Positions 1,396 to 35,863 of a stretch of 64,000 nt of DNA are shown one piece after another (positions within the stretch are counted from its first letter, which is position 1; every line of letters starts with the position of its first letter). The notes under the pieces are model-generated. The model ran no database searches. It was not told the origin of the DNA and saw only the letters and a list, made by a program, of their open reading frames with translations. The stretch spans positions 19,775 through 83,774 of the forward strand of contig JBAYKL010000004.1 in assembly GCA_041664585.1 (NCBI GenBank). The letters run 5' to 3'. The position numbers and the translations under genes were made by a program. This stretch comes from Minisyncoccota bacterium. Lineage in GTDB: Bacteria > Patescibacteriota > Minisyncoccia > Phycocordibacterales > GWA1-40-21.

Positions 1396-1788
1396 TTAGT
1401 TGTTTTTAAAACTTTCTATCTGGAAAATACCCGTTACCTTTAGATTGAGTTCTTGGAAGTTTGTCCTATTTTTAACCAAGGTATTGCTATAAAAGGGTTC
1501 GGCGTCTTCTCTACATGATAATGTTATATGAGGAGCTTCATTTTCTGATAGGTTTGTCTTAACAACTGCCGCCTGACCCTTTTCATCAAAGCAAAAACCA
1601 ATAATTTCAAGCTCGATTCGTTTGCCTATATAACCTTCATATTTTTTATACACAACATCGTCAGGTTTATAAGCCACCGTCATATGGTGGTAATATATTT
1701 TATTATGTACTGATTTAATATTTTCCTTCAAAAAATCTATCGACTCATTATCCAAAGTAACTAACATGTAGCCGTTAAATTCATTCAT
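1396..1788 (-). CDS. Small 2H-phosphoesterase-like protein (LigT / 2',3'-cyclic phosphodiesterase-like).
   Basis: Two H-x-T-x motifs (HMTV and HITL) about 60 aa apart, the 2H superfamily signature; 130 aa. Confidence 0.4.
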   Translation of the reverse strand: MNEFNGYMLVTLDNESIDFLKENIKSVHNKIYYHHMTVAYKPDDVVYKKYEGYIGKRIELEIIGFCFDEKGQAAVVKTNLSENEAPHITLSCREDAEPFYSNTLVKNRTNFQELNLKVTGIFQIESFKNN

Positions 1789-1790
1789 AT

Positions 1791-2147
1791 TTATATAATT
1801 TTAGTGAGAATACTCTCTAAAACTTTTTTAATATCTGAGTAACTAGGTACTTTTTCTGATTTCTTAGCAAAAATAACAACCGTCTTTTTAAGATCTGGTT
1901 TTATTTTATCCAAATTTTTTTCAATTACATCACTCATCCTTCTTTTTATAAGATGTCTACCTGCTGAAGTTTTTTCAACTTTTTTTGATATAACTATAGC
2001 AAAGCCAGTCTTTTCTGGGGTCTTTCTAGAGACCTTCGCATATACAGTAGGGGAATCAAGGGTTATTCCTGTTCTAATAGTGTTCTCTATATCAACCCTC
2101 GTAGCTCTATATTTCCTTGGAATCATAATTAGTCTATATAATATCAC
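1791..2147 (-). CDS. rnpA: Ribonuclease P protein component.
   Basis: 118 aa basic protein; RHLIKRR motif; rpmH-rnpA-yidC synteny. Confidence 0.85.
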   Translation of the reverse strand: MILYRLIMIPRKYRATRVDIENTIRTGITLDSPTVYAKVSRKTPEKTGFAIVISKKVEKTSAGRHLIKRRMSDVIEKNLDKIKPDLKKTVVIFAKKSEKVPSYSDIKKVLESILTKII

Positions 2148-2183
2148 TATATATCAAAAAAGGGCACCAAGGCCCTTTTTTAT

Positions 2184-2321
2184 TTATACTGTTGTTAATC
2201 TCTTTCTGCCCTTTACTCTCCTTTTGCTCAAAACCCTCTTTCCATATGCTGTTTTGCTTCTTACCAAAAAACCATGGGTTTTTGCTCTCTTTCTTTTTTT
2301 AGGTTGATATGTTTCTGACAT
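2184..2321 (-). CDS. rpmH: 50S ribosomal protein L34. The start was trimmed to the internal Met ([12 protein letters not shown]...).
   Basis: 45-aa highly basic product matching the L34 consensus; the ATG complement is at 2319-2321. Confidence 0.85.
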
Positions 2322-2389
2322 AATGTAGGAGTATAAACCAAAAAAAACTTTTTGTAAAGTATTTTTAATATCAAAATATATTATTATTA

Positions 2390-2449
2390 GTATCCACGAG
2401 ATATACACAGCTTATGCACAAAAGTAAATTTTAATAAAAACTATCCACA
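2390..2449. promoter_or_regulatory. DnaA-box cluster upstream of dnaA: gTATCCACg at 2390-2398 and cTATCCACA at 2441-2449.
   Basis: 8/9 and 7/9 matches to TTATCCACA in the rpmH-dnaA intergenic region. Confidence 0.5.
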
Positions 2450-2473
2450 ATTTATAATAAGGTAAACAAAAAC

Positions 2474-3805
2474 ATGGTTGAAAATAAAACTCTTTGGACG
2501 AATGTGTTGGCTGAAATAGAACTTAGTTTATCTAAAGCTAATTTTAGTATGTGGTTTAAGGATACCTTTATTCTTAAACAAGATGATGGGGTAGTATATC
2601 TTGGTGTACCAAATGTCTTTGTAAAAGATTGGTTATTAAATAAATATCATAAAGATATATTGAAGAACCTCAGGACCTTTGGGGAAAACATTAGAAATGT
2701 TGAATATGTTGTTTCTAAAGAAGAACAAAAAAACATCCTTAAAACACCAACCTTCCATAATCAGCTGCCTCTGAACGATTTTTATATAAACAAGGAAGAC
2801 AATCTTAATCCAAAATATACTTTTGAAACCTTTGTCGTCGGTCCATTCAATGAATTAGCTCACGCAGCTTCTCAAGCGATTCTCAAAAAACAAGCTGCGT
2901 ACAATCCACTCTTTATTTTCGGTAGCACAGGTCACGGAAAGACCCATCTTATACAAGCACTAGGGAACCACTACAAATCGGCAGATCAAAATAAAAAGGT
3001 TTACTACATTACCTCAGAAAAATTTGTTAACGATTACTTAAATTCTCTTAACAATGGAACGGCGAATAATTTTAAAGAGAAATATAGAAAGTATGACATC
3101 CTTATAATAGACGACATACAATTTCTTTCTAAAAAGGATAAGTCTCAGGAGGAGTTTTTCCATTTGTTTAATACACTACACGAAAATAATAAACAACTTA
3201 TACTTTCTTCGGATAAACACCCAAACTTCATCCCTGATATCGAGGAAAGAATAAAATCTAGATTCAATGCCGGTATGATAGTAGAGATACAAAAGCCTGA
3301 TTTTGAGTCTAGAATTCAGATATTTAGTAAGAAATCTTCACTTATAGGACTTTCACTCTCAAACGATATAATAGAGTACCTGGCGGCTTCTGTAGACGGT
3401 AATATAAGGGAATTAGAGGGCATTCTAAACCTCATCCTTTGCCAATCTCAATTAAAAAATAAGGAGATGACACTTAACGAAATAAAAGATTTGGTTAAAA
3501 ATACAACCAAACTAAAGAAAAGTGTTTCTATTAAAGATGTTATTAAAATAATAGCAGAATACTACGGTATAGAAGAGGCTAATATCTATAAGAAAGGGAG
3601 AAAAAAAGAAGTAATTAAACCAAGACAGGTTATAATGTATATATTAAGAGACGATTTTGATATCTCATTCCCTTCAATAGGAGAAAAAGTAGGGAATAGA
3701 GATCACTCAACTGTAATACACTCATACGAAAAGATTAAAAGTGATTTAAAAACCGATCCCGATTTAGCACAAGAGATAAGTCAGATACGTTCGATGTTGA
3801 AATAG
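2474..3805 (+). CDS. dnaA: Chromosomal replication initiator DnaA.
   Basis: 443 aa; Walker A GSTGHGKTHL; AAA+ and C-terminal DNA-binding domain motifs. Confidence 0.95.
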   Translation: MVENKTLWTNVLAEIELSLSKANFSMWFKDTFILKQDDGVVYLGVPNVFVKDWLLNKYHKDILKNLRTFGENIRNVEYVVSKEEQKNILKTPTFHNQLPLNDFYINKEDNLNPKYTFETFVVGPFNELAHAASQAILKKQAAYNPLFIFGSTGHGKTHLIQALGNHYKSADQNKKVYYITSEKFVNDYLNSLNNGTANNFKEKYRKYDILIIDDIQFLSKKDKSQEEFFHLFNTLHENNKQLILSSDKHPNFIPDIEERIKSRFNAGMIVEIQKPDFESRIQIFSKKSSLIGLSLSNDIIEYLAASVDGNIRELEGILNLILCQSQLKNKEMTLNEIKDLVKNTTKLKKSVSIKDVIKIIAEYYGIEEANIYKKGRKKEVIKPRQVIMYILRDDFDISFPSIGEKVGNRDHSTVIHSYEKIKSDLKTDPDLAQEISQIRSMLK

Positions 3806-4023
3806 TTGTTTATAAGTTATTGATAACAAGTATGTAAGGTTGTTTATAAGAAATTGATAACTTTTAAGTAAAAATTATACACTTTGATACAACCAGCTAA
3901 TAAACAAAATAGGAAAGAAAATATTATAAAAATATGTTCATAAATAAAGACGAAAAAAGTTTTAAACAAGTAAACAGATATAATAATAAGTAAGGTATTT
4001 TATTAATTAAAAGAAACAAGAAT
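3806..4023. promoter_or_regulatory. AT-rich dnaA-dnaN intergenic region, a putative oriC/DUE. It carries two direct repeats, TTGTTTATAAG(TT/AA)ATTGATAAC, at 3806-3827 and 3840-3861.
   Basis: 218-bp, >80% AT spacer with a 22-bp direct repeat containing TTATCAAT-like degenerate DnaA boxes on the complementary strand. Confidence 0.45.
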
Positions 4024-5124
4024 ATGAAAATAGAATGTGTTAAAGATAAATTACATATAGCGGTGTCTAAAGCAGAGAAGATTGCTAGTAAAAATATTTC
4101 TCTACCAGTTCTTTCATGTTTATTGTTTGAAACAAGAAAAAATATTTTAGTTATCAGATCTACTAATCTTGATTTGGGTTTAGAAATATCTATTCCGGTA
4201 AAAGTTGAGGAAGAGGGAAGGGTTGCTGTTCCGGCTCAAGTTATAAGCAGTTTTTTGAACAATCTATCGGATGATAAAAATATTAAGCTAGAAACCATCG
4301 ATAATATCCTTAAGGTGTATTCTTCAAATAGCGAAGCTAATATTAAAACTCTCCCCGTAGATGATTTTCCTACAGTACCTATGATAGATGAAGGTAAGGT
4401 TTGCAAGATAAATATAAAAGATTTAGTTGGTGGTATAAAGTCTGTCATCTATAGTGCTTCAACTTCTTCTGTAAAACCAGAGCTTGCTAGCGTATATATG
4501 TATTCAGAGGATGATAATTTTGTTTTTGTTGCTACAGATTCGTTTAGACTCGCAGAAAAGAAAATTAAAAACAGAAAGCCTATAGATATAAATGGTATTC
4601 TCATCCCTTTCAAAAATGCAGCCGATATCTTAAAGATCGTCGATGGTAATGATGGAGAAATAGAAATAAATTGTACAAAAAATCAGATATCTTTTAGTTT
4701 TGATGGTATATATCTTGTTTCTAGAGTTATTGACGGAGTATTTCCTGATTACAAACAGATTTTACCAAAAGAAACAAAAACTAGTATTGTTGTTTTGAAA
4801 CAAGATTTAGTGAACGCACTAAAGCTATCAAATATCTTTTCTGACACGTTTAATCAAATGAATATTTTAGTTTCAGTAGAGAATAAAACTCTTACCGTAA
4901 AAACAAAGAATTCAAATATTGGTGAAAATGTAAATAAAATAGATTCAACTATAGAAGGGGAGAGTATAGACGTTAATTTTAATTATAAGTACATAGTTGA
5001 TTGTTTGCCATTAATTTCATCAGATAGTATTTCTCTTTCTTTTGCTGGTTTGAATAAGCCTATGGTTATAAAAGGAGTATCTGATAAGAGCTTCACATAT
5101 CTTGTGATGCCTATGAATAGGTAA
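4024..5124 (+). CDS. dnaN: DNA polymerase III beta sliding clamp.
   Basis: 366 aa, three-domain clamp architecture, immediately downstream of dnaA. Confidence 0.9.
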   Translation: MKIECVKDKLHIAVSKAEKIASKNISLPVLSCLLFETRKNILVIRSTNLDLGLEISIPVKVEEEGRVAVPAQVISSFLNNLSDDKNIKLETIDNILKVYSSNSEANIKTLPVDDFPTVPMIDEGKVCKINIKDLVGGIKSVIYSASTSSVKPELASVYMYSEDDNFVFVATDSFRLAEKKIKNRKPIDINGILIPFKNAADILKIVDGNDGEIEINCTKNQISFSFDGIYLVSRVIDGVFPDYKQILPKETKTSIVVLKQDLVNALKLSNIFSDTFNQMNILVSVENKTLTVKTKNSNIGENVNKIDSTIEGESIDVNFNYKYIVDCLPLISSDSISLSFAGLNKPMVIKGVSDKSFTYLVMPMNR

Positions 5125-10389: not shown

Positions 10390-10599
10390 TTACCATTCGT
10401 CGTTTGTTCTGAAGTCTAGTTCTTCTAGCTCATCATCTTCTCCAGCGAGAAGTTCTTCCTCCTCCAACCCTGTAGGAGAGGCATCATCAAAAGCTTCGAG
10501 AGCATCATCTGAAAGTAAGCCAGAAGATTTTTCTTCCGTTTCTTCTCCCTCTTCTTTTACATCACCTTTCTCTTCAACATCACCTTTCTTTTTTGCCAT
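10390..10599 (-). CDS. Extremely acidic 69-aa protein (Asp/Glu-rich, C-terminal ...NDEW).
   Basis: ORF with AT-rich upstream region; composition read directly. Confidence 0.4.
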   Translation of the reverse strand: MAKKKGDVEEKGDVKEEGEETEEKSSGLLSDDALEAFDDASPTGLEEEELLAGEDDELEELDFRTNDEW

Positions 10600-10689
10600 A
10601 TATTTAAAATATTTTTATCTTATTAATACTCATAAATGAGTAATTACGTATATTGTCTAAAGTTTTGGAAATTTTGCAAATATCAAAAC

Positions 10690-10698
10690 TGTGGATAA
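10690..10698. promoter_or_regulatory. Perfect DnaA box (TGTGGATAA) in the upstream region of the acidic-protein gene.
   Basis: Exact 9-mer. Confidence 0.3.
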
Positions 10699-15180: not shown

Positions 15181-15208
15181 TTGACACACAAGCTATCTGT
15201 AGTATAAT
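15181..15208 (+). promoter_or_regulatory. Consensus sigma70 promoter TTGACA-16-TATAAT.
   Basis: -35 at 15181-15186, -10 at 15203-15208. Confidence 0.6.
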
Positions 15209-15251
15209 ACTTGGGAAGGTGGGTTTTGATATCTTAACAAGAAAGGAGATT

Positions 15252-15566
15252 ATGAAAACTACCATTTTGATTGTTTTGTTCTTTGTCTGTGTGACGTTTA
15301 CAGCACAGCAGGCAACTGCTGCTGATGTTCGGTGGGGTGTGTCCATAAGTCCTGGTGTCATTGTTTACGACTCTCCTCAGTATGAGCGTAGGTTGGTCGT
15401 AACCAGAGATTATTACGGCAACGTAATTGAAAGTCATTACGAACTGGTACCTGTGTACATGCCACCTCCGCCCCCGCCGCGTTATTACCCAGTTGTTTAT
15501 CCTTGGTTTACAATTGGTAGTTCGCACCATCATGGTCACCATGGCCATCACGGGGGACATCGCTAA
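15252..15566 (+). CDS. Small secreted Pro/Tyr/His-rich protein A (104 aa precursor with Sec signal peptide, PPPPPP run, C-terminal HHHGHHGHHGGH).
   Basis: Strong RBS aaaggagat 5 nt before ATG 15252; signal peptide MKTTILIVLFFVCVTFTAQQATA. Confidence 0.6.
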   Translation: MKTTILIVLFFVCVTFTAQQATAADVRWGVSISPGVIVYDSPQYERRLVVTRDYYGNVIESHYELVPVYMPPPPPPRYYPVVYPWFTIGSSHHHGHHGHHGGHR

Positions 15567-15627: not shown

Positions 15628-15655
15628 TTGACAAACATTTCATTTAGTGTATAAT
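15628..15655 (+). promoter_or_regulatory. Consensus sigma70 promoter TTGACA-16-TATAAT for the second small secreted protein.
   Basis: -35 at 15628-15633, -10 at 15650-15655. Confidence 0.6.
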
Positions 15656-15707
15656 GGTATACAAAGGTATTGTTTTCAAGAATCTTAAACAAAAGGAAGG
15701 AGATCTC

Positions 15708-16091
15708 ATGAAAACTGTAAGTTTGTTCATTCTATGCGTGGTGTGCTTTGCTCAGGTGTCTGTCGCTGACGGCTGGAATCTTAATGTTAATTTTCCGCCT
15801 CCGCCGCAGCAACAGGTGATAGTGGTTCGTGAACCCGCACCCCCTCCGGTAGTTATATACCGCGAGGCGCCGCCGGTTGTTATTTACGAACAACCTCGGC
15901 GCTGGGGATATTCCTACGAATATGAATACCAGGCTGGTATATCAATTTCGATAGGGAGTGGCGGAGGTCATTACCCCAGTCATTACAACGACCGTAATCA
16001 TTACGAACGTCGTCGTGGTGGTGACCCGTGGGGATCACACAATGCACCAGTTGATACACCGCATCGTCCAGCTAACAACTGTGCTTGGTAA
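15708..16091 (+). CDS. Small secreted Pro/Tyr/His-rich protein B, a paralog of A (127 aa precursor with PPPP and VVIY repeats, His-rich tail).
   Basis: RBS aaggaaggag; signal peptide MKTVSLFILCVVCFAQVSVA; motifs shared with protein A. Confidence 0.6.
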   Translation: MKTVSLFILCVVCFAQVSVADGWNLNVNFPPPPQQQVIVVREPAPPPVVIYREAPPVVIYEQPRRWGYSYEYEYQAGISISIGSGGGHYPSHYNDRNHYERRRGGDPWGSHNAPVDTPHRPANNCAW

Positions 16092-16174: not shown

Positions 16175-16609
16175 ATGAAGATATTAAGTAAATCTTTAGA
16201 AGATACAGAAAAAATAGCCAAAGATTTTTTGGAGAAACTTGCGCTATCTTCTTTTGAAGAGGCAACTATTGTAGGGCTTTATGGAGACCTTGGGTCAGGG
16301 AAGACCACTTTCACACAATCCATAGCAAAAATATTTGGTATTAAAGAGGATATTACAAGTCCGACTTTTGTTATTGAAAAAATATATTCCTTAGAGAATC
16401 CTTTTTATCATAATCTTATACACATAGACGCATATCGCCTAGAATATACAAAAGAAATGCATGCTCTTGGTTGGGAAAATATTTCTAAAAATCCACATAA
16501 TATTATATTTATAGAATGGCCAGAAAGAGTAATAGACGCTTTGCCAGAAAATCATTTGAAAATAAACTTTAAATTTGTTTCGGAGAATGAGAGGGAGATA
16601 GAGATTTAA
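16175..16609 (+). CDS. tsaE: tRNA threonylcarbamoyladenosine biosynthesis ATPase TsaE. The start was trimmed to MKILSKS.
   Basis: 144 aa; P-loop GDLGSGKTTF typical of TsaE/YjeE. Confidence 0.75.
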   Translation: MKILSKSLEDTEKIAKDFLEKLALSSFEEATIVGLYGDLGSGKTTFTQSIAKIFGIKEDITSPTFVIEKIYSLENPFYHNLIHIDAYRLEYTKEMHALGWENISKNPHNIIFIEWPERVIDALPENHLKINFKFVSENEREIEI

Positions 16610-16649
16610 TTATCCACATCTTGCCAAGGTGCTAGGGGGGGGCTATAAT
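16610..16649 (+). promoter_or_regulatory. Promoter TTGCCA-17-TATAAT for the 16657 gene. A G8 homopolymer (16635-16642) lies inside the spacer and a perfect DnaA box TTATCCACA (16610-16618) abuts the -35.
   Basis: -35 at 16621-16626, -10 at 16644-16649. The ATG is 7 nt downstream, so the mRNA is leaderless. Confidence 0.5.
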
Positions 16650-16656
16650 AGTAGAA

Positions 16657-18891
16657 ATGAAATTCAAACAATTTCTAATTTCTGCTGGTATTGTTCTAAT
16701 ATCCATTTTTGTCATTGTCGGTATTGTTTCTGCCACTCACAATCTATATTCTTCCAAACAAACATCAGAATCTACTTTCCACTCTCTAAATGATATATAC
16801 AATCTAATAATGTCAGGAACAGAGAAGGCAACTCCCGATAGCCTAACCTCCACATCTGTTTCTCCCACAGCAACCACCTCACATTCCATAGGAGAGATCT
16901 ACACCATATTAGCTAATATAAAGGTAAACAAAGCTACTTCTACATACAGCTCACTTACTCCAACATCTGCACCAGGAGGTACAGGTTATACCCTAGAAGA
17001 CATATGGAATTTAATAAACAACTCTACATATGCTGCAGAAGGTAATCATGATATTACAAAAGCAACTACTCCTTCTGCTTCTATGCATACTACCTCAGAC
17101 ATATATACATATTTAAATGATACATTTAAGGTAAATCTTGCATTGAATAAGGTAAGAAGTGGAGCATACTATTTTGGTAACTCAAACCCTGGTACCTTTG
17201 TCATAGCTAATCTCGGTGAATACTGTGAGGCTAATGATGAGTGTAATACAAACTACTGTGGGGATGATAGTTGGTATGGCTGGCAGACTGGGACTACGCA
17301 ATGTACTACAGGGGAAATCGGATCAGTTTGTAATAATGCGAATCAGTGTTCTACAAATATTTGTGGTTATGGGCAATGTTCTGATGGTGCTGTGGGGAGG
17401 GGGTGTGATAGTGATAGTCAGTGTACATTAGGGCATTGTGATACAGCGGTTACAGGTTCTTGCACAGATGGAAATATTGGTTCAGATTGTGACTCTAATG
17501 CAGATTGTTCTACAGGATTATATTGTGGGGATACACAATGGATGTATAGTTCACCAGCGTGTACCGACGGTTCCGCAGGTCAATACTGTGGAGGACCAGA
17601 TTCATGTGCTCCAGGGAATTATTGTAATTATAATGATTATACTTGTACTGCTACTGATGGGGAAATAGGGTCAGGGTGTGGACAGAATTCTGATTGCGGC
17701 TCTGGATATTGTGATCAGTATAATAGTTATACTTGTACTAACGGAGGAGTTGGAGTTGGTTGCAGTGCTGGTAATCAATGCTCCTCAGGGTATTGTAATA
17801 CTGATTTCAATGAATGTTCTACCGGACAAATAGGTGCACCTTGTGGAGCGACTGGAGACTGTATATCTACTTACTGTGGATATGATTTCAGTCAAGCTTC
17901 TTCTTTCTGTACTAACGGAGGTATTGGAGAAGGTTGTAGTTATAATGCAGCTTGTGTTTCTGGATATTGTGACGTCTTTAATTCCCAATGTTCTGATGGA
18001 AGTATAGGGTCTGGGTGTACGAATAATAATCAGTGCTCTTCAAACCTATGTAGTTCTGTGGTCAATGAATGTATTAGTGGAGATATTGGTTCTTCTTGTA
18101 CTGTTGGGCAGGAATGCGATTCAACCTATTGTGATACCTTTAATGGTATATGTAAGACTGATGGGGCTATTGGAAGTGCCTGCGGATTACATTCTGAATG
18201 TGATTCTGAATTCTGCTCAAGTAATGTTTGTACTGCAGCAACTCTAACATCTAGACTTTCCGCCTATTGGAATTTTAATGAAACTTCTGGAACAGCAGCT
18301 AGCGATTCTTCTGGGAATGGAAAGGTTGGAGTTCTTGTAAGCGGCGTATTAGTAAATCAAACTGGTAAGTTGGGGACAGGTTTCAGATTTGATGGGACAA
18401 ATGACGTCGTCACAGTAAACAACATTGACATTAAAGATTCCTCATTTACATTTTCTGTCTGGGTTGCGAATACAAAGGCTGGTAATAGCTCTCCATTTTC
18501 TATGGGCTCTTCTGGCACCACGAATGGTTATCTATGGATAAGAAAAGTTACTACTACTAATAAAGTGGGATTTGGTTTCCATAATTATGGAACTTATGTA
18601 AATAGTAATAATAGTATGAGTACTAATGGTACTTGGGAGCACTGGGTCTTTGTGTATAAGCTTGGAGTAGGTAAAAAAATATATAAGAACGGTGTTCTTG
18701 ATATAACTGATTCTAATACACAAGCATTCAAATACCCAAGTGGGCAATTAAGAATAGGACATTCTTTTGATGCTGGACAATATCTTGGTGGAACAATGGA
18801 CGAAATCGGATTATGGAACCGCGCACTTACTGCAGACGAAGTCACTCAACTCTATAATGGAGGTGCTGGACTTGGTTACTCATCTTTCTAA
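16657..18891 (+). CDS. Large secreted surface protein, paralog 1. Domain order: signal peptide, three S/T-rich approx 40-aa repeats, about 11 tandem 4-Cys repeats (C-x-DG-x-IGS-x-C...C-S-G-x-C), C-terminal LamG/ConA-like lectin domain.
   Basis: 744 aa; repeat periodicity read from the translation; LamG_3-like motifs (LSAYWNFNETSG...GLWNRALTADEV). Confidence 0.7.
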   Translation: MKFKQFLISAGIVLISIFVIVGIVSATHNLYSSKQTSESTFHSLNDIYNLIMSGTEKATPDSLTSTSVSPTATTSHSIGEIYTILANIKVNKATSTYSSLTPTSAPGGTGYTLEDIWNLINNSTYAAEGNHDITKATTPSASMHTTSDIYTYLNDTFKVNLALNKVRSGAYYFGNSNPGTFVIANLGEYCEANDECNTNYCGDDSWYGWQTGTTQCTTGEIGSVCNNANQCSTNICGYGQCSDGAVGRGCDSDSQCTLGHCDTAVTGSCTDGNIGSDCDSNADCSTGLYCGDTQWMYSSPACTDGSAGQYCGGPDSCAPGNYCNYNDYTCTATDGEIGSGCGQNSDCGSGYCDQYNSYTCTNGGVGVGCSAGNQCSSGYCNTDFNECSTGQIGAPCGATGDCISTYCGYDFSQASSFCTNGGIGEGCSYNAACVSGYCDVFNSQCSDGSIGSGCTNNNQCSSNLCSSVVNECISGDIGSSCTVGQECDSTYCDTFNGICKTDGAIGSACGLHSECDSEFCSSNVCTAATLTSRLSAYWNFNETSGTAASDSSGNGKVGVLVSGVLVNQTGKLGTGFRFDGTNDVVTVNNIDIKDSSFTFSVWVANTKAGNSSPFSMGSSGTTNGYLWIRKVTTTNKVGFGFHNYGTYVNSNNSMSTNGTWEHWVFVYKLGVGKKIYKNGVLDITDSNTQAFKYPSGQLRIGHSFDAGQYLGGTMDEIGLWNRALTADEVTQLYNGGAGLGYSSF

Positions 18892-18900
18892 AATAAACAA

Positions 18901-18928
18901 AAAACGGCCAGAAAATGGCCGTTTTTTC
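18901..18928 (+). terminator. Terminator aaaacggccagaaaatggccgtttttt.
   Basis: 7-bp stem plus T-run. Confidence 0.7.
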
Positions 18929-24553: not shown

Positions 24554-27500
24554 ATGAAATTAAGATCAAAATTAATTTTAATATCTCTTGTTTCGTTGTC
24601 TTTTTGTTTTGTTTCTTCTGTTTTTGCTGCCGGTTGTGGAAAGGAATATTCATCAGAAGGGGATTACTATTATCAGTGTGATGGAACTCAGGTTACACAA
24701 ACGGCTGTTGTAATGTTCGGAGATATTATAGATAATTTTACGAATTCATCGACTACGGCTTCTTGGAGGTTTTATGATGGTGTAAACAAAAGAGAAGCTT
24801 TTTATACAACGGTTTTACCGCCGTTAAACGTTAGTTTAGTCATCTCCTCTAGTAGAACCGACTATGATATATTTACCGCTGCTGGCTCGCCCACATTTCC
24901 TGTAAACATTACTTTAACTATTGCTTCTGGAACGGTGGTATCTTCTACTAGAAGTGATAGGGGAGCAATTTATGGTAGTCAAAATCTACCAGCGGGATCT
25001 ATTGTTTCTATAATAAATAACGGAGCTATTATTGGAAGAGGAGGAGACGGAGGTGGAGCTGCTGGTCCAAATTGGCTTACAAATGGTGTTGGTTCACAAA
25101 ACGGTGGATCTGCTATTTCGTTAGTTGCTAATTCTAGTATTGTCACAAATAATGGGAAAATTTATGGCGGAGGAGGCGGAGGTGGCTATTGTCCTAAGGG
25201 AGGTCCAATTGGTGTGTATTATCCTGGTGATCCTGTTTATGTTTGGGGAGGTGCTGGAGGCGGAGCAGGAGGTAGCTCTGGTGGTCACGGATCATGCGGT
25301 TATGCACAAGGTGGTACTTCTGGAATAAACGGTACTCCAGGTAATGGTATTACGTGTAGCGGTAAGGGTGGCGGTGCCGGAGGTTCTTATGGTTCTCCTG
25401 GGGTTGTAGCTACTTGTACGGCCGGTCAAGATTACTGGATGGGCCCAGCTGCCGGAGGTAACTCTATATTAACTAGTAATTTTGATTTATGTATTGATGG
25501 AAACTCTTCTAGTACTGTAAAAGGGGATATTAGTAGTGCTTATAATGTAAGTTGTCCTTTTACTAAAGCACCGCTTCCTACCGTTACAATTTCAGCTACT
25601 CCTAACCCAGTAGTTTATGGTAACTCTAGCGTCGTAACATGGTCTTCGACAAACACTGTGTCGTGCTCTGCGGTGGATGGATGGGCTACCTCTAGCTCAA
25701 TAAGCGGATCTGCAAATATTAATATCTTGAGATTGAATAAAAGTTTTACGATATCTTGTGTAACAAATAATGGAACTATTACTTATGCAACTACTACGGT
25801 ACAGGTAAGCCCCGCTCCACCTACGTCCCAGAGGATGATAAATTCTGGTCTTATCGGATACTGGCCCTTTGATGAAGCGTCTGGATCAAAAGCAGTAGAT
25901 TATTCTGTTAATGGTAATGATGGAAATATTCTCAATGGGGTTTCAATAAATCAGCCTGGTAAAATTGGAAGAGCTTATGGTTTTGATGGTGTTGATGATA
26001 TTGTTAACCTTGGCAATTTTGATTCATATCTTGTTGGTAAAGAAAATTTATCTTTTTCTGCTTGGATAAAAGGAGATACTTTTAATACTAATAAAACTAT
26101 TTTATCAAACACACTTGATGGTGCTGCACAGTTAGAATTTTATATTAACCCAACAAGTATATCTTTTTGTGACTATACCAATGGGGTGCCAAATGGTTGG
26201 TGTCCAGGTGTTTTTAATCAAAGTCTTAGTTTAAGTAGTTGGCATCTTCTAGTTGCTGTATTTCGTCCTGGCACGGTTGAACTTTTTGTTGATGGTGTGT
26301 CTGTCGGTAGTAAATCTGTATCTGGTGCAACAGCGAGACAGTCTGGTTCAAATGCCAAGAATCTTATAATTGGTGGGAGGTCTGTTGCTAGTTATATGAA
26401 TAAGTGGGACGGCATGATAGATGAGGTGGCTATTTGGGATAGGCCTCTTTCAAGCCAGGATGTTTTTGATTTGTATAATGGTGGTCAAGGTATGAGCTTA
26501 ATCAATTCTTGTCCTTCTGGGGAAGAATATATTTATACTGGTAGCTATGATGTTCCACCTTCAACATATGATATTCCTGATACTATGAATTGTGGATGTG
26601 GAGATGATTCAAATTCTTGTGGTTGTGGTGATTCTTACTCTTGCCCATGTGGTGATTCAAATAGTTGCCCTTGCGGGGATGATTCAATGTCTTGTGAGTG
26701 TGGAGACGATTCTTATTCTTGCAGTTGTGGAGATTATGGATGTGAAATCTGGGAAGGTTCATATGATTGTGCGTGTGGTAATGAAATTTATCTTCCAGAA
26801 GAATGGGGTTATTGTTGTGAAGACTTGGTGCCAGACACAATGTCTTGTGAGTGTGGGGACGATTCTTATTCTTGTGGATATTGGGGAGACGAGCCTTGCG
26901 GCGATGATTCCTATTCTTGTGCCTGTGGCGATGAATACTGGGAGCCATACGAATGTTTATGTAGTATGGAATATTATGAGCCTGATACTATGGATTGTTA
27001 TTGTGGAGATCAGGAGGTTTGTGTCGTTGATAACAATAATTGTTCTTGTGGAGACTCTTACTCTTGCGCGTGTGGTAACGATTCTAATTCTTGTCCGTGT
27101 GGCGGAGACCTAAATTCTTGTTTTTGTGGAGATGATCCTTACACTTGCGGTTGCGGAGATGAAACGATGTCTTGTCTTTGTGATAACGCTTATAGTACAT
27201 ATGTTCCAGGATGGACTGAATACACTGGACGTTGTGTCCCGACAGATACTTTAGAAACCTTTATTGTGTCCCCAAGTGAAGTTCTTCCTGACAATAAATT
27301 TAATTTAAGTTATCGTACAAGCAACTTCAACCCTGGGGATACTTGCGTTGCTTCTGGTGGTTATGGTTGGTCTGGAACCCTCAATACAAATCCGACTATA
27401 CAGATAGAGGTTGGACCAATACCGACAAGCAAGACTTTTAATTTGATTTGTACTAGGGCCTCAGATAGCAAAACCGCTTCCGATTCAAAAACTATTAATC

Positions 27501-27847
27501 TAATTACACAACAACCAAATCATCTTACTTATACGGAAGAGGATGGTGTGGTGTGTAGTGTTGAGCAAGCAGGTAGAAATGGAAAGATATATGTAAACAA
27601 AAATACCATTTGGACATTAAATTCCCCAGTGGATTTATTAAACTATTCTATATCTACAGAATGGTTTGGTGATGGTATTAATACAATAACGAACTCTACG
27701 AGTACGTCTAAAATTTATACAACCGTTGGTCTTAAAAAAATAGCAGCCACTACAACTGCGACTAAGATTGGAGGAACCACCTACTATCTTATTTGTTCTA
27801 CCTCTACAAATGTTATTTTAGGTAACGATCTTATAAAGGAGATTTAG
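24554..27847 (+). CDS. Giant secreted surface protein (1097 aa). Domain order: signal peptide, Gly-rich low-complexity region, LamG/ConA-like domain, array of Cys-rich C-x-C-G-D-(D/S)-S-x-S mini-repeats, Ig-like C-terminal region.
   Basis: Signal peptide MKLRSKLILISLVSLSFCFVSSVFA; LamG motifs (GYWPFDEASG...AIWDRPLSSQDV) shared with the 16657 and 35864 proteins. Confidence 0.7.
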   Translation: MKLRSKLILISLVSLSFCFVSSVFAAGCGKEYSSEGDYYYQCDGTQVTQTAVVMFGDIIDNFTNSSTTASWRFYDGVNKREAFYTTVLPPLNVSLVISSSRTDYDIFTAAGSPTFPVNITLTIASGTVVSSTRSDRGAIYGSQNLPAGSIVSIINNGAIIGRGGDGGGAAGPNWLTNGVGSQNGGSAISLVANSSIVTNNGKIYGGGGGGGYCPKGGPIGVYYPGDPVYVWGGAGGGAGGSSGGHGSCGYAQGGTSGINGTPGNGITCSGKGGGAGGSYGSPGVVATCTAGQDYWMGPAAGGNSILTSNFDLCIDGNSSSTVKGDISSAYNVSCPFTKAPLPTVTISATPNPVVYGNSSVVTWSSTNTVSCSAVDGWATSSSISGSANINILRLNKSFTISCVTNNGTITYATTTVQVSPAPPTSQRMINSGLIGYWPFDEASGSKAVDYSVNGNDGNILNGVSINQPGKIGRAYGFDGVDDIVNLGNFDSYLVGKENLSFSAWIKGDTFNTNKTILSNTLDGAAQLEFYINPTSISFCDYTNGVPNGWCPGVFNQSLSLSSWHLLVAVFRPGTVELFVDGVSVGSKSVSGATARQSGSNAKNLIIGGRSVASYMNKWDGMIDEVAIWDRPLSSQDVFDLYNGGQGMSLINSCPSGEEYIYTGSYDVPPSTYDIPDTMNCGCGDDSNSCGCGDSYSCPCGDSNSCPCGDDSMSCECGDDSYSCSCGDYGCEIWEGSYDCACGNEIYLPEEWGYCCEDLVPDTMSCECGDDSYSCGYWGDEPCGDDSYSCACGDEYWEPYECLCSMEYYEPDTMDCYCGDQEVCVVDNNNCSCGDSYSCACGNDSNSCPCGGDLNSCFCGDDPYTCGCGDETMSCLCDNAYSTYVPGWTEYTGRCVPTDTLETFIVSPSEVLPDNKFNLSYRTSNFNPGDTCVASGGYGWSGTLNTNPTIQIEVGPIPTSKTFNLICTRASDSKTASDSKTINLITQQPNHLTYTEEDGVVCSVEQAGRNGKIYVNKNTIWTLNSPVDLLNYSISTEWFGDGINTITNSTSTSKIYTTVGLKKIAATTTATKIGGTTYYLICSTSTNVILGNDLIKEI
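26583..27180 (+). repeat. Imperfect tandem DNA repeats with a 24/27-bp period (TGYnnnTGYGGnGAYkmnwmyTCT) encoding about 20 CxCGDDSxS units. They include a nested ~35-bp duplicate (26687-26722 and 26837-26876).
   Basis: Periodicity visible in both the nucleotide sequence and the translation. Confidence 0.7.
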
Positions 27848-27948: not shown

Positions 27949-29730
27949 ATGCAACTTGATAATAAACAAATCAAAGAATTTATTATAGATGCGGGGCTTG
28001 TGAGCCGAACAGAATATGATGAAATGGAAAAAGAGGCAGATGCTTTAGTCCATGGTTCTGGTCAATTCAACAAAAAGGATACAGTAGAAAAGCTCCTTGT
28101 TAGCAAGGGAAAGATTTCAGAGGATGATTTACGCAGAGCCCAAGCATATGTTTACGGTATTCCATTTGTAGATCTAAAAGGGCAGAAGATAGATTTTATG
28201 GTTCTTTCTCTTATACCAGAACCTATTGCTAGAAAAAACAATATTGTTGCATTTAGAAGAAATATTGATTCTCTTGAGGTTGCAATGTTAGATACAGATG
28301 ATCTTGCTTCAATTGAATTTATAAAGAAGAAAGTTGGGCTAAAGATTTCACCTCGTCTTACTGACACCGACTCTATTAAGAGTGCAATTCTACAATATCA
28401 AAAAAGTCTAAAAGCTGAATTTGGTGACTTAATACAAAAAGATGTTGCCGCTTTAAAGACTACTGACACGTCTGTGGTGGCGGGTGATTCTCCAAATGAC
28501 TCTCTCAAAAAACTTGCAGAAGATTTACCCGTTGTTCGTATTGTAGATACTCTTCTTAAACATGCTGTATTACAGAATGCTTCTGATATTCATATGGAAT
28601 GTATGGAGAATGAAATGCTTGTGAGATATAGGATTGATGGACTTTTGCATGATGCAATGATTCTTCCAAAAAATGCTTCAATGAGTATTACGGCTAGAAT
28701 AAAAGTTCTTGCTAGCTTAAAGCTGGATGAAAAGAGATTGCCACAAGATGGTAGATTCAAAATCGATGTAAATGGTGAGCCAGTTTCTTTCAGGGTCTCA
28801 ATTATTCCTACATATTTTGGAGAGAAAACGGTTATGAGGCTTTTGAGAGAGGGAGGCGGGGGCTACACTCTTGAGTCTATGGGTTTCCATGGAGAAACAT
28901 TAGAGAGAATATATGAAGCTACAAAACAGGCAAATGGCATGATCCTTACGACTGGTCCTACTGGATCTGGTAAAACAACAACCTTGTATTCCATACTAGA
29001 AATCCTCAATACTCCAGATGTAAATATTTCTACTATCGAAGACCCTATCGAATATCAAATGCCTAGAGTAAATCAAACCCAAGTAAAACCAGAGATTGGT
29101 TTTACATTCGCTAATGGTTTAAGATCTTTAGTTAGGCAAGATCCAGATATCATAATGGTTGGAGAAATCAGAGACACCGAAACGGCATCTCTTGCTGTAA
29201 ATGCAGCTCTTACTGGACACTTGGTTCTTTCAACTTTACACACCAATAGCGCTGCTGGTGCAGTACCTAGGCTTATAGATATGAAGATAGAGCCTTTTCT
29301 ACTTGTTTCTACAATAAATATAATAATGGCGCAAAGACTTGTAAGAAGACTAGGAAAAGTAAAGGAAAAATATTTGCTTTCTAAAACAGAACTTCAGGAA
29401 CTATCTAAAGTAGTAGATATGAATAGAGTCTTAGAATTTTTAAAAGCAGAAAAAGTTGTTGGAGAAAAGGATGATTGGAGTAAAATTCATTTCTATAAAC
29501 CAAAAGAATCAGAGGATGCAAAAGATGGTTTCTCTGGCAGAGTCGGAATACATGAAGCGCTTAGGATGACGGGGACTATAAAAGACTCGATTATGAAAGG
29601 AGCTACATCAGACGAAATAGACGCACAAGCTAAAAAAGAAGGCATGATCTCAATGTTTGAAGACGGTGTCTTCAAAGCTGCTTCTGGACTTACCACTCTT
29701 GAGGAAGTTTTGAGAGTGGTTTCTGAGTAA
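27949..29730 (+). CDS. pilB: Type IV pilus assembly ATPase PilB/GspE, paralog 2.
   Basis: 593 aa; Walker A GPTGSGKTTTLY; Asp/His boxes; upstream of pilC. Confidence 0.85.
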   Translation: MQLDNKQIKEFIIDAGLVSRTEYDEMEKEADALVHGSGQFNKKDTVEKLLVSKGKISEDDLRRAQAYVYGIPFVDLKGQKIDFMVLSLIPEPIARKNNIVAFRRNIDSLEVAMLDTDDLASIEFIKKKVGLKISPRLTDTDSIKSAILQYQKSLKAEFGDLIQKDVAALKTTDTSVVAGDSPNDSLKKLAEDLPVVRIVDTLLKHAVLQNASDIHMECMENEMLVRYRIDGLLHDAMILPKNASMSITARIKVLASLKLDEKRLPQDGRFKIDVNGEPVSFRVSIIPTYFGEKTVMRLLREGGGGYTLESMGFHGETLERIYEATKQANGMILTTGPTGSGKTTTLYSILEILNTPDVNISTIEDPIEYQMPRVNQTQVKPEIGFTFANGLRSLVRQDPDIIMVGEIRDTETASLAVNAALTGHLVLSTLHTNSAAGAVPRLIDMKIEPFLLVSTINIIMAQRLVRRLGKVKEKYLLSKTELQELSKVVDMNRVLEFLKAEKVVGEKDDWSKIHFYKPKESEDAKDGFSGRVGIHEALRMTGTIKDSIMKGATSDEIDAQAKKEGMISMFEDGVFKAASGLTTLEEVLRVVSE

Positions 29731-29741
29731 AATAAATTAAA

Positions 29742-30953
29742 ATGCATTTTAAATTTAAAGCGGTAAAAAGTAGCGGAGAGAAATATGAAGGAGTGAGAGA
29801 ATCTCGCGATAAGTTTTCTTTATATGCAGAGATAAAAGCAGAAGGGGATACTTTAATTACAGCAAAAGAGATTTTTAAAAAAACTTCTAGTTTTTCAAAA
29901 ATTGATGGTTTTATAAATAGAGTTCCAATGCATCAGAGAATAATCTTTGCTAAGAATTTAGGCTCTATGTTAGATGCAGGTCTTTCTTTGGCCCGTGCTT
30001 TAGCTGTTCTCGAGAAGCAGGTAAAGAATGGAAAGCTAAAAAGTATAATTACTTCAATTTCTATTGATATCAAAACCGGTAGAACTCTAAGTGAAGCACT
30101 AAGACCTTATCCAGACACTTTTTCCCAACTTTTTATTTCCATGGTAAAAGCAGGAGAAGAAAGCGGAAAGCTTTCCGAATCTCTTATTATAGTAGCCGCA
30201 CAAATGGATGGTAATTATAAACTTAAGCAGAAGATAAAGGGAGCAATGATATATCCGGCTGTTATTATCTCCATCATGATTATTATTGGTGTTCTTATGC
30301 TCATCTTTGTCGTACCTAGCGTTACGGCTACATTTAAGGATTTAAAAATTCAACTTCCTTTTCTAACTAGAATTCTTATTGGCGCTAGTGACTTTTTGAA
30401 AAATAATATATTTATTTCTTTTATTGCCGTCATTGCCGTTTCGGTTGGTACATATTTATTATCAATTTCATCTAAGGGCAAAAGATTTTTGGATGGACTG
30501 TTTCTAAAAATGCCAGTGGTAGGGGATTTGGTAAGGGAAACTAATTCGGCTAGAACAGCCAGAACAATTTCATCTCTTCTTTCTTCTGGTGTGGCTTTTG
30601 CAGAGGCGATCTCTATAACTCAGGATGTTGTACAGAATTCTTTTTTCAAAGATATTCTTAAGGAAGCTCGTATAAAGGTTGAAAAAGGAGAAACGATTTC
30701 GAGTGTGTTTTTAAGTAAAACAAATATTTGCCCTATTTTTATAGGAGAAATGATGAGTGTTGGGGAAGAGACAGGAAGACTTCCGTCTATGCTTATGGAG
30801 GTTGCACTTTTTTATGAAAATTCAGTAGATCAAAAGACGAAAGATCTTTCTACTATAGTGGAGCCAGTACTTATGGTTATTATAGGCGTAGCCGTTGGAT
30901 TCTTTGCTCTTGCTATGATCACTCCAATATATTCTTTGATGGATACAATTTAG
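29742..30953 (+). CDS. pilC: Type IV pilus inner-membrane platform protein PilC (GspF family).
   Basis: 403 aa; duplicated GspF domains; 3 TM segments. Confidence 0.85.
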   Translation: MHFKFKAVKSSGEKYEGVRESRDKFSLYAEIKAEGDTLITAKEIFKKTSSFSKIDGFINRVPMHQRIIFAKNLGSMLDAGLSLARALAVLEKQVKNGKLKSIITSISIDIKTGRTLSEALRPYPDTFSQLFISMVKAGEESGKLSESLIIVAAQMDGNYKLKQKIKGAMIYPAVIISIMIIIGVLMLIFVVPSVTATFKDLKIQLPFLTRILIGASDFLKNNIFISFIAVIAVSVGTYLLSISSKGKRFLDGLFLKMPVVGDLVRETNSARTARTISSLLSSGVAFAEAISITQDVVQNSFFKDILKEARIKVEKGETISSVFLSKTNICPIFIGEMMSVGEETGRLPSMLMEVALFYENSVDQKTKDLSTIVEPVLMVIIGVAVGFFALAMITPIYSLMDTI

Positions 30954-30971: not shown

Positions 30972-31463
30972 ATGCAAAAGAAAAATCTTAAAAGAGGAAT
31001 ATTACTTGTTGAGGTTATCATATCTGTTTTTATTATTTCTGTTGTTGTGAGCGTGCTTATAACAGCAAGTAATTTGTATTTAACAGCTTCCTCTTCTGGT
31101 TTGAAATCTACAAAGGCAATGTACTTTGCTCAGGAGGGGATGGAGGCCGTTAGAATTATAAGAGACAAGTCTTGGCAGGACTTTCAGAGCCTTAATGAAG
31201 GAGAAGATTATTACTTGTATTTTTCAATATCTGCTTCAAGTACCTGGAATGCAACGACATCGGTTTTCTATAAAACTACAGGTGGTATAGATAGATGGTT
31301 TGTGATAAGCCCTGTGCGTCGTGCGTATACTAGAATTACAGAAGGTGAAGGAGAGGTTGATCTATATACAAAGAAAGTTGATGTTTTTGTTTCCTGGCAA
31401 GATAGGGAAAGGGTGATTACAAAAACATTATCAACCTATTTAACAAAAATAATTCCAGATTAA
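30972..31463 (+). CDS. Prepilin-type protein (class III signal: KRG / ILLVE with Glu+5).
   Basis: N-terminal motif KRGILLVEVIISVFII. Confidence 0.65.
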   Translation: MQKKNLKRGILLVEVIISVFIISVVVSVLITASNLYLTASSSGLKSTKAMYFAQEGMEAVRIIRDKSWQDFQSLNEGEDYYLYFSISASSTWNATTSVFYKTTGGIDRWFVISPVRRAYTRITEGEGEVDLYTKKVDVFVSWQDRERVITKTLSTYLTKIIPD

Positions 31464-31978
31464 TGAATAAAACATCATTTAAAAAAGGGTTTTCTTTTCC
31501 AGAAATATTGGTTTATATAGCCATCATGACCACTATCTTACTTATTGTCGTTAATATAGTTTTTTTTGTTTCAAAATCCATAAGACAATCATCCTCATAT
31601 AATAATATAAGAAACTCAGCAGTATTTGGTTTAGAGAAAATTAAAAAAGAGGTAATGTCTTCATATGGGATTGATTTAAATCAGAGCGTGTTCGATTCTT
31701 CAAATGGGGTTCTTGTTTTAAATTCAAAAGATGAGAATGATATTTCTAAAACGATCAAATTTTATTTAGACGACGGTTTGGTGAAGATGGACATTGACGG
31801 AGATTTTGCGAGCACAGTTACTTACAGTGACACGAGAGTTTTGAAACTATTTTTTGTACCAATAGACACTGTAAATTCCAAGGGTGTAAAAATAGAGATG
31901 GGTATTAGCGGGGAGGGTACCAATTTTTTGGTTGCCGAAGATTTCTATAGTACTGTTGTCCTAAGAAACTCATATTAA
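31463..31978 (+). CDS. Prepilin-type protein (KKG / FSFPE with Glu+5).
   Basis: N-terminal motif KKGFSFPEILVYIAIM; 1-nt overlap with the upstream gene. Confidence 0.65.
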   Translation: MNKTSFKKGFSFPEILVYIAIMTTILLIVVNIVFFVSKSIRQSSSYNNIRNSAVFGLEKIKKEVMSSYGIDLNQSVFDSSNGVLVLNSKDENDISKTIKFYLDDGLVKMDIDGDFASTVTYSDTRVLKLFFVPIDTVNSKGVKIEMGISGEGTNFLVAEDFYSTVVLRNSY

Positions 31979-31980
31979 TT

Positions 31981-32379
31981 ATGAATACTGTTATCAAAAG
32001 ACAAAATAATTTAAAGAGTGGACAGGTAATGATTTTGACCGCTATCTTTTTTGTTGTTTTTACATCTGGTATCTGTTTGGGTTTGATAGACCCAGTAGTA
32101 GAACAAATAAAAAATTCCAATTATTATTGGAATTTAAATGAAAGTTATTATTTAGTAGAAGCTGGAGTTGAGGATGTTGCTTATAGATTTAAAGGTAACG
32201 TAAATATGAATGGAGAAGAGACAACCTTGATAAATCAATCCGGAATTGTTACCGACATATCAGAGCAGGACGGTAATGGTATCACAGTTTCTGCATTGGG
32301 TGATGAAAGAGTAAGGACTGAACTAAAAAAGGGCATCGATGAACAACCCTTTGAGATATTAAATTGGAGAGAAATATAG
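31981..32379 (+). CDS. Minor pilin-like protein lacking Glu+5 (PilX-like N-terminus KSGQVMILTAIFFVV).
   Basis: Hydrophobic N-terminal helix after a G; operon context. Confidence 0.45.
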   Translation: MNTVIKRQNNLKSGQVMILTAIFFVVFTSGICLGLIDPVVEQIKNSNYYWNLNESYYLVEAGVEDVAYRFKGNVNMNGEETTLINQSGIVTDISEQDGNGITVSALGDERVRTELKKGIDEQPFEILNWREI

Positions 32380-35824: not shown

Positions 35825-35863
35825 GCATTGCTCCCATCTCTTCAGTACGCTATAATATCCCTA

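Follow-up and report, generated by a model that had tools for sequence, protein, structure and literature searches.

In several bacteria, the promoters of surface-protein genes carry a simple repeat between the -35 and -10 elements. Neisseria meningitidis has a poly-G tract at porA and a poly-C tract at opc, and the length of these tracts sets the spacer and hence a graded promoter strength. The tracts are approximately G9-G11 and C10-C15, respectively; they vary among isolates and within cultures, and dozens of them are found per genome. Comparable repeats are the poly-A tract of the vlp promoters in Mycoplasma hyorhinis and the TA repeat of hifA/hifB in Haemophilus influenzae, which belong to variable surface-protein families of small-genome, host-associated bacteria and are carried by all family members. 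The low-GC Campylobacter jejuni has approximately 20-30 poly-G loci per genome, which are mostly G9-G10, mostly lie inside open reading frames (ORFs) and have been measured for switching (PMC8355987). Here, we describe a related arrangement in a 64,000-nucleotide (nt) stretch of a Minisyncoccota genome (hereafter, the window), where a run of eight G residues (G8) lies in the promoter spacer of a gene encoding a 744-amino-acid (aa) protein with cysteine repeats and a LamG domain, between tsaE and polA. Judged by its recurrence in related genomes, the promoter at 16610-16657 is a genuine, conserved sigma-70-type promoter, and the messenger RNA (mRNA) that it gives is probably leaderless, as indicated by its fixed TATAAT-7 nt-ATG layout.

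The G8 locus resembles porA and opc in that a G or C homopolymer lies between the -35 and -10 elements of a surface-protein gene, and it resembles vlp and hif in that a simple repeat occupies the spacer of such a promoter. In contrast to porA and opc, the tract is G8, is invariant in the compared assemblies and is the only one in 64 kb, and most orthologs lack it. In contrast to vlp and hif, the repeat is of another type and is present in one of two paralogs and in three of eight lineages. As in C. jejuni, the GC content is low (35.4% for the window, compared with the approximately 33% given for the surroundings in the initial annotation), a length of G8 falls within the range over which switching has been measured there, at its lower limit, and mismatch repair is possibly absent; unlike the C. 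jejuni loci, the tract is a candidate for switching. Length polymorphism among close strains, a feature of spacer-tract switches, was not found in the assemblies compared, and several tracts per genome, another such feature, were not found in the 64 kb and 23 related loci, both comparisons being of low power. We therefore regard the G8 locus as a candidate, not an established, spacer-tract phase-variation locus.

Related loci were collected by exact-protein look-ups with the LamG protein, TsaE and their homologs, which led to the slot between tsaE and polA in approximately 10 related genomes, whose housekeeping genes were 77-91% identical to those of the window at the nucleotide level. In all, 23 related loci were compared with the window, and 12 promoters from approximately 10 genomes made up the family alignment. 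The G run was counted over eight lineages of the gene type whose product begins with MK(S/F)K (orthologous or related). Tract length within lineages was compared in four assemblies of the window strain (the JGI source, ERZ27249449, SRR6484324 and SRR18595301) and in three assemblies of the L009 strain (JGI 3300042261, SRR27007106 and SRR35144456). Chance estimates were obtained from a first-order Markov model or from 100 dinucleotide shuffles. An exact 21-mer of the -10/start region gave no match in a metagenome contig collection in which those samples are not included, the JGI contigs carrying the 21-mer; the same 21-mer found one locus, L011, in a genome contig collection. A protein-profile scan of metagenome contigs yielded five loci only, which were mostly paralog-type genes from one sample.

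As evident from the consensus scan, the site at 16621-16649 matched 11 of 12 consensus positions. Eight sites in the window matched at least this well, compared with 3.0 +/- 2.0 in the Markov simulations, and low-stringency matches were at the chance level (16 vs 15.5 expected). Since single motifs did not go beyond chance, the case for the promoter rests on the comparison with relatives, and it was the recurrence of the motifs at the orthologous promoter in related genomes that exceeded chance. In particular, the TT of the -35 hexamer, the TATAAT hexamer and the gap of exactly 7 nt to the ATG (AGTAGAA in the window) were invariant in all 12 family promoters, and a G two nt upstream of TATAAT was present in 11 of them (Table 1). 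The -35 hexamer of the orthologs was kept as TTGCCA, TTGACA or TTGCTA. We also observed that this layout was retained both where tsaE directly adjoins the promoter and where the two are set apart by a terminator and 150-330 nt of unrelated DNA. Additionally, a paralog type of the gene (N-terminus MTKK or MPKK) was found after tsaE in L013 and L023, at 35864 in the window and in L017, L019 and L020; all of these promoters had the TATAAT-7 nt-ATG arrangement, and none had a G run.

Every promoter-element coordinate of the initial annotation was exact when read from the window sequence, including the G8 inside the -35/-10 spacer and the perfect DnaA box 2 base pairs upstream of the -35. Its TTGCCA-17-TATAAT promoter call and its leaderless start were supported by the conserved element set and the invariant 7-nt gap in the 12 promoters, and the equivalent promoter without a G tract that it described at the paralog was indeed read there as TTGCTC-17-TATAAT-7 nt-ATG. 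The region was also considered as a terminator of tsaE or an RNA element, and this was rejected: the scan showed no terminator-like site at 16600-16660, leaving the passage from tsaE to the promoter free of a terminator, and Rfam and transfer RNA (tRNA) searches of the window gave no matches.

In the leaderless promoters of Actinobacteria and Deinococcus, 6-8 nt separate the -10 element from the start codon downstream of it, and a Shine-Dalgarno sequence is lacking. The promoter described here is similar in both respects, as no Shine-Dalgarno sequence was found ahead of the ATG at 16657 and the TATAAT-7 nt-ATG arrangement of all 12 promoters fits a leaderless mRNA; the difference is that here the arrangement was recognised from its conservation among relatives. 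Transcription is predicted to start at the ATG or 1 nt before it, which would produce a leaderless, monocistronic mRNA. A TATAAT hexamer was also found 6-8 nt before the start codon of approximately 10 further genes of the window. One of them is polA, whose promoter (TGcTATAAT-6 nt-ATG) follows the hairpin terminator of the LamG gene. Many genes had such a hexamer near the start and no Shine-Dalgarno sequence, for example those at 1351, 8596 and 11401 on the minus strand and at 18955, 24087, 38081, 42086, 57649 and 59576 on the plus strand, which suggests that leaderless transcription is widespread in this Paceibacteria genome.

The G8 was the sole run of at least seven G or C residues in the window. 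For runs of at least eight residues in 64 kb, the Markov model predicted 0.30 of G and 0.04 of C (P of approximately 0.29), and 52 of the 100 shuffles matched the observed count of the G7 pattern; by itself, the G8 is statistically unremarkable. No enrichment of such G/C tracts was found in the 64-kb window, which is part of the genome. When the window and the 23 loci were taken together, G runs of at least seven residues occurred only as promoter tracts. The promoter tract site is special, yet the DNA examined shows no sign that such tracts are used across the genome.

The G run was found in three of the eight lineages, as G8 in the window and as G7 in both L010 and the group of L009, L021 and L022. 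It was missing from the other five lineages, including L006, L007, L011 and L012, as it was from all paralog-type promoters. The 3' part of the spacer was still G- or purine-rich where the homopolymer was lacking (TAGGGGAGC and TAAGGAAGC; GGGGAGC, GGAAGC and GGAGAGA), and because these relatives are G- or purine-rich at the same place, the homopolymer appears to have expanded, in particular lineages, from a 3' spacer that was already G-rich. The difference in tract length among species, eight compared with seven and seven, is what slippage produces. Both G7 promoters had spacers below the optimum, with 16 nt in L010 and 15 nt in L009; in the latter, a perfect TTGACA stands at 15-nt spacing, and only G8-G9 would bring this to 16-17 nt.

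The initial annotation had proposed a check for heterogeneity of the tract in related strains, and we found the lengths to be identical within lineages. All four assemblies of the window strain had G8, with no mismatches over 3.6-6.4 kb, and all three assemblies of the L009 strain had G7, with no mismatches over 2.6-3.1 kb. These assemblies are clonal consensus sequences that are 100% identical over 2.6-6.4 kb, which makes this a weak test of length variation within lineages. An assembly or sequencing artefact was rejected as the source of the G8, as the run was present in independent assemblies from different runs.

We favour the reading in which the promoter is real and its G run is either neutral or evolving slowly, and we give this reading an even chance of being correct. 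A 3' spacer that was G-rich ancestrally would have expanded to G8 in this lineage, which sets the spacer at the optimal 17 nt in this strain, and slippage would have altered the tract length over evolutionary time, as in the sister species with G7. The tract would accordingly act as a slow tuning knob or be a neutral by-product and would not be a dedicated high-frequency ON/OFF switch; in this reading, we infer both how tract length affects promoter strength and how fast slippage occurs. Saturation mutagenesis of spacers in Escherichia coli revealed a preference of strong promoters for G immediately ahead of the -10 element, in the Ex region (PMC12641261), which could explain the G-rich relatives with neither a homopolymer nor switching. 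The phase variation through the G tract that the initial annotation had proposed was neither supported nor refuted: the tract was absent from five of eight lineages, alone in 64 kb and invariant within lineages in the clonal consensus sequences.

Several observations weigh against a slow or neutral run. The G8 in the spacer has the geometry of known transcriptional phase-variation loci, and the product is a variable, mosaic, surface-exposed protein of the kind that is usually under such switches. The 16- and 15-nt spacers of the G7 lineages are sub-optimal, and the spacing in L009 is mild evidence that its tract was, or sometimes is, longer. Minority length alleles are invisible in clonal consensus assemblies. 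The mutation rates of G8-G11 tracts in C. jejuni, which has no mismatch repair, are 1e-4 to 1.6e-3 per division, with G8 switching at 1e-4 to 1e-3 (PMC8355987), and Saccharibacteria, one phylum of the Candidate Phyla Radiation (CPR), lack MutS and MutL (PMC8406219). No mutS or mutL was found among those ORFs of the window that have sufficient length for either protein, each of which received another annotation, the shorter ORFs being partly annotated.

These observations would agree with a true contingency locus, in which slippage at the G8 toggles the spacer among 16, 17 and 18 nt at high frequency and produces heritable, reversible states of high and low expression; we consider this alternative rather unlikely. 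It gains from the position of the tract wholly within the spacer, where G8 gives the optimal 17 nt, from the difference in length between sister species, from the L009 promoter, which would become optimal only if its tract lengthened, and from the confinement of long G runs to these promoters. Further support comes from the gene itself, which is variable and mosaic and at times absent or frameshifted at its slot. However, the four and three assemblies of two clonal lineages showed the same lengths, and the absence of the tract from five of eight lineages indicates that it is not a conserved regulatory device. Additionally, a single tract in 64 kb with no enrichment is unlike genomes that use such tracts, and G7-G8 lies near the lower limit of the lengths that switch. 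With near-consensus hexamers, any spacer of 16-18 nt is functional, and a change of one G, to a spacer of 16 or 18 nt, is thus predicted to give graded expression at best and not ON/OFF control. Read-through transcripts may also exist, as no terminator follows tsaE.

A second alternative is that the G run was selected for its sequence and not for its length, as an extended -10-like element that would promote open-complex formation at a leaderless promoter or as the site of a G-tract-binding regulator, which we find distinctly unlikely. The G two nt upstream of TATAAT in 11 of 12 promoters, the purine- or G-rich 3' spacers that persist without a homopolymer and the enrichment of guanine in the Ex region of strong E. 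coli promoters (PMC12641261) are consistent with it. In contrast, only the last one or two G residues were conserved across the family, and the paralog-type promoters were A- or T-rich at the same place (AAAAAGC and TAATACGC). A candidate G-tract binder is not known, and the RNA polymerase of CPR bacteria may not behave as the E. coli data would suggest. Finally, the G8, the 9-mer box and the chance-level low-stringency matches are each unremarkable, and the interval between tsaE and the gene has no terminator, but a coincidence of chance hexamers, G run and 9-mer in an AT-rich genome, with transcription coming from elsewhere, such as tsaE read-through, is highly improbable given the missing Shine-Dalgarno sequence and a layout with a 7-nt gap that was invariant in 12 promoters, including those separated from tsaE by 150-330 nt and a terminator.

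DnaA-box-controlled promoters are known from dnaA autoregulation, the DnaA regulon of Bacillus subtilis and the DnaA-activated genes of Caulobacter, and the well-studied ones typically have clusters of at least two boxes. The promoter of the LamG gene is similar to them in that a consensus 9-mer, TTATCCACA, stands beside the core promoter, dnaA lies 13 kb away and similar boxes precede dnaA. It differs in having a single box, a surface-protein target, a variable gap to the -35 (2, 11 or 22 nt) and putative binding by DnaA. The perfect 9-mer was found in five lineages (the window, L010, L011, the L009/L021/L022 group and L017), and it matched at eight of nine positions in L012, was degenerate in L007 and was missing in L006. 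The gap to the -35 was 2 nt in four lineages, 11 nt in L009 and 22 nt in L017. The left flank of the box was wholly different among lineages: in the window and L009 it was the stop codon of tsaE (in the window, the TAA at 16607-16609 directly adjoins the box), and in L010, L011 and L012 it was formed by unrelated inserts. The 9-mer was found nowhere else in the 23 loci but at these promoters.

Within the window, the perfect 9-mer occurred twice, compared with 0.77 expected, and 18 of the 100 shuffles reached two. The promoter box was single and unclustered, with the nearest one-mismatch site at 16416, inside tsaE. The box spans approximately -47 to -39, and a protein bound there would touch the -35. 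We tried the idea that helical phase is preserved across the different gaps and rejected it, since the distances from the box to the -10 (24, 25, 26, 32 and 45 nt) showed no consistent phasing. Based on its conservation, the TTATCCACA beside the -35 probably functions as the operator of a DNA-binding protein, and a cis-regulatory role for it is plausible. DnaA would be the obvious candidate for its binder, which is a reasonable supposition.

The DnaA encoded in the window possesses its DNA-binding domain (Bac_DnaA_C), and near-consensus box-like sites were also found just upstream of dnaA, at 2392-2449. The classical origin neighbourhood at 1396-5124 contains rnpA and rpmH, both on the minus strand, dnaA and dnaN (4024-5124), and the cumulative GC skew has its minimum at approximately 2-4 kb, which places the G8 promoter approximately 13 kb from the probable oriC. 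The second perfect TTATCCACA of the window is intergenic, at 10690-10698 on the minus strand, approximately 90 nt ahead of a short ORF on that strand (approximately 10397-10600) with a very acidic product; no clear promoter adjoining this copy was found. In L012, a truncated box (TTATCC) that keeps the usual left flank was observed at 868-876, approximately 150 nt upstream of the functional-looking GTTATCCACGcc-TTGCAT promoter (1011-1022), an arrangement suggestive of an insertion by which the box region was split or duplicated. Loss of the L012 gene at a break inside the box was rejected, as the gene, a second box matching at eight of nine positions and the promoter were found approximately 150 nt further on.

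The 744-aa product was called giant in the initial annotation, which its length does not bear out, whereas its surface-protein nature was supported. The protein contains an N-terminal hydrophobic anchor, 48 cysteines in approximately 12 four-cysteine repeats at residues 190-525, four S/T-x-x-D/E-I-Y/W repeats and a Pfam Laminin_G_3 domain at residues 579-729 (E=4e-21). Its homologs are named LamG domain-containing protein (Candidatus Paceibacterota), which marks the source as a CPR bacterium, and the LamG part matched an S-layer domain protein in the PDB (4qvs). No type IV pilin signal of the G/FTLxE type was found at its N-terminus. The number of cysteine repeats varied among relatives through indels of whole repeats. 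The two paralogs of the window share exact repeats of 38 nt (16885-16922 and 36086-36123) and 41 nt (17257-17297 and 36455-36495) and are otherwise approximately 74% identical outside these repeats, which suggests that the exact repeats arose by gene conversion. Two Logan contigs that end at 16914 were considered as a polymorphic or mosaic breakpoint, and this was rejected because the 38-nt paralog repeat explains the break in k-mer assembly.

The contents of the tsaE-polA slot varied among relatives. It held an MK(S/F)K-type gene, a paralog-type gene (L013 and L023) or no LamG gene at all (L014, L015 and, from its gene map, the P0159 contig); the paralog-type copy in L023 was frameshifted, and the slot of L007 had an extra ORF encoding a 225-aa coiled-coil-like protein. 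The slot is a variable, fast-evolving locus and a hotspot of swapped, lost or broken LamG genes. A third LamG-domain protein of 1097 aa is encoded at 24554-27847, directly upstream of a type IV pilus cluster with a PilB-like ATPase (27949-29730), a PilC-like protein (29742-30953) and small pilin-like ORFs (30972-32379), one of which had a weak ComGE-like match. The LamG domains gave weak, sub-threshold matches to the TafC fimbrial protein family, which hints that the LamG proteins are pilus-associated.

Some other features of the window were also observed. Its two perfect consensus promoters (TTGACA-16-TATAAT), at 15181-15208 and 15628-15655, serve small secreted Pro-/His-rich proteins encoded at 15219-15566 and 15654-16091, between pilB and tsaE; these ORFs are syntenic in relatives and had no match in Pfam/NCBIfam. 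An isoleucyl-type class I tRNA synthetase of 1149 aa (51587-55036) contains a His_Phos_1 domain at residues 495-662 (E=1e-36) between its catalytic and anticodon-binding parts, an unusual fusion or insertion.

Table 1. Coordinates of the features discussed in the window and layout of the corresponding promoters in related loci.
Feature	Position	Strand	Details
dnaA	2474..3805	+	candidate trans-factor; Pfam Bac_DnaA, Bac_DnaA_C, DnaA_N
tsaE, 144 aa	16175..16609	+	Pfam TsaE, E=1e-32; gene call in source contig also 144 aa
9-mer box TTATCCACA	16610..16618	+	consensus DnaA-box 9-mer, candidate operator; 2 nt (TC) upstream of -35
-35 hexamer TTGCCA (5/6)	16621..16626	+	sequence; consensus scan
17-nt spacer AGGTGCTAGGGGGGGGC	16627..16643	+	sequence; ortholog spacers 15-18 nt
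G8 homopolymer	16635..16642	+	-22 to -15 relative to the A of ATG
-10 hexamer TATAAT	16644..16649	+	invariant in 12/12 family promoters; G two nt upstream of hexamer
Coding sequence, 744 aa	16657..18891	+	N-terminal hydrophobic anchor; C-terminal Laminin_G_3
Bidirectional hairpin terminator	18899..18927	.	closes the monocistronic unit
Paralog promoter TTGCTC-17-TATAAT	35828..35856	+	7 nt to ATG 35864; no G run, no box
Paralog, Cys-repeat/LamG protein, 713 aa	35864..38005	+	56% identity
Promoter, window			box TTATCCACA + tc; TTGCCA; spacer 17; G8; TATAAT-7 nt-ATG
Promoter, L010			box TTATCCACA + cc; TTGCCA; spacer 16; G7; TATAAT-7 nt-ATG
Promoter, L009, L021, L022			box TTATCCACA + 11 nt; TTGACA; spacer 15; G7; TATAAT-7 nt-ATG
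Promoter, L011			box TTATCCACA + cc; TTGCCA; spacer 18; AAGGAAGC (AAGGAAG); TATAAT-7 nt-ATG
Promoter, L012			box TTATCCACG (8/9) + cc; TTGCAT; spacer 18; no run; TATAAT-7 nt-ATG
Promoter, L007, L008			degenerate box; TTGCCA; spacer 18; GGGGAGC; TATAAT-7 nt-ATG
Promoter, L006			no box; TTGCTA; spacer 17; GGAGAGAT (GGAGAGA); TATAAT-7 nt-ATG

Our literature search found no paper linking Patescibacteria with phase-variable loci, and the nearest case was the hypervariation of a coding 9-mer repeat in a Gracilibacterium (PMC6851277). That the G8 is a working slippage switch, and would be the first promoter-spacer homopolymer contingency locus in CPR/Patescibacteria, with the conserved DnaA-box operator adding a cell-cycle input, is in our judgement unlikely. 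If it were true, expression of the variable LamG/Cys-repeat protein, whose gene lies near pilB and has paralogs next to a type IV pilus cluster, would rise and fall within clonal episymbiont populations. CPR/Patescibacteria are mostly uncultured episymbionts, and the regulation of their host-contact proteins is almost unknown; a switching G run would extend stochastic surface variation, known so far from animal pathogens, to environmental ultrasmall bacteria. If the G run does not switch, the locus would be a strong promoter of the ordinary kind in which the homopolymer is incidental. Independently of switching, a conserved family of leaderless sigma-70-type promoters in Paceibacteria is well supported by the comparison, which also yields a conserved DnaA-box-like putative operator before a surface-protein gene.

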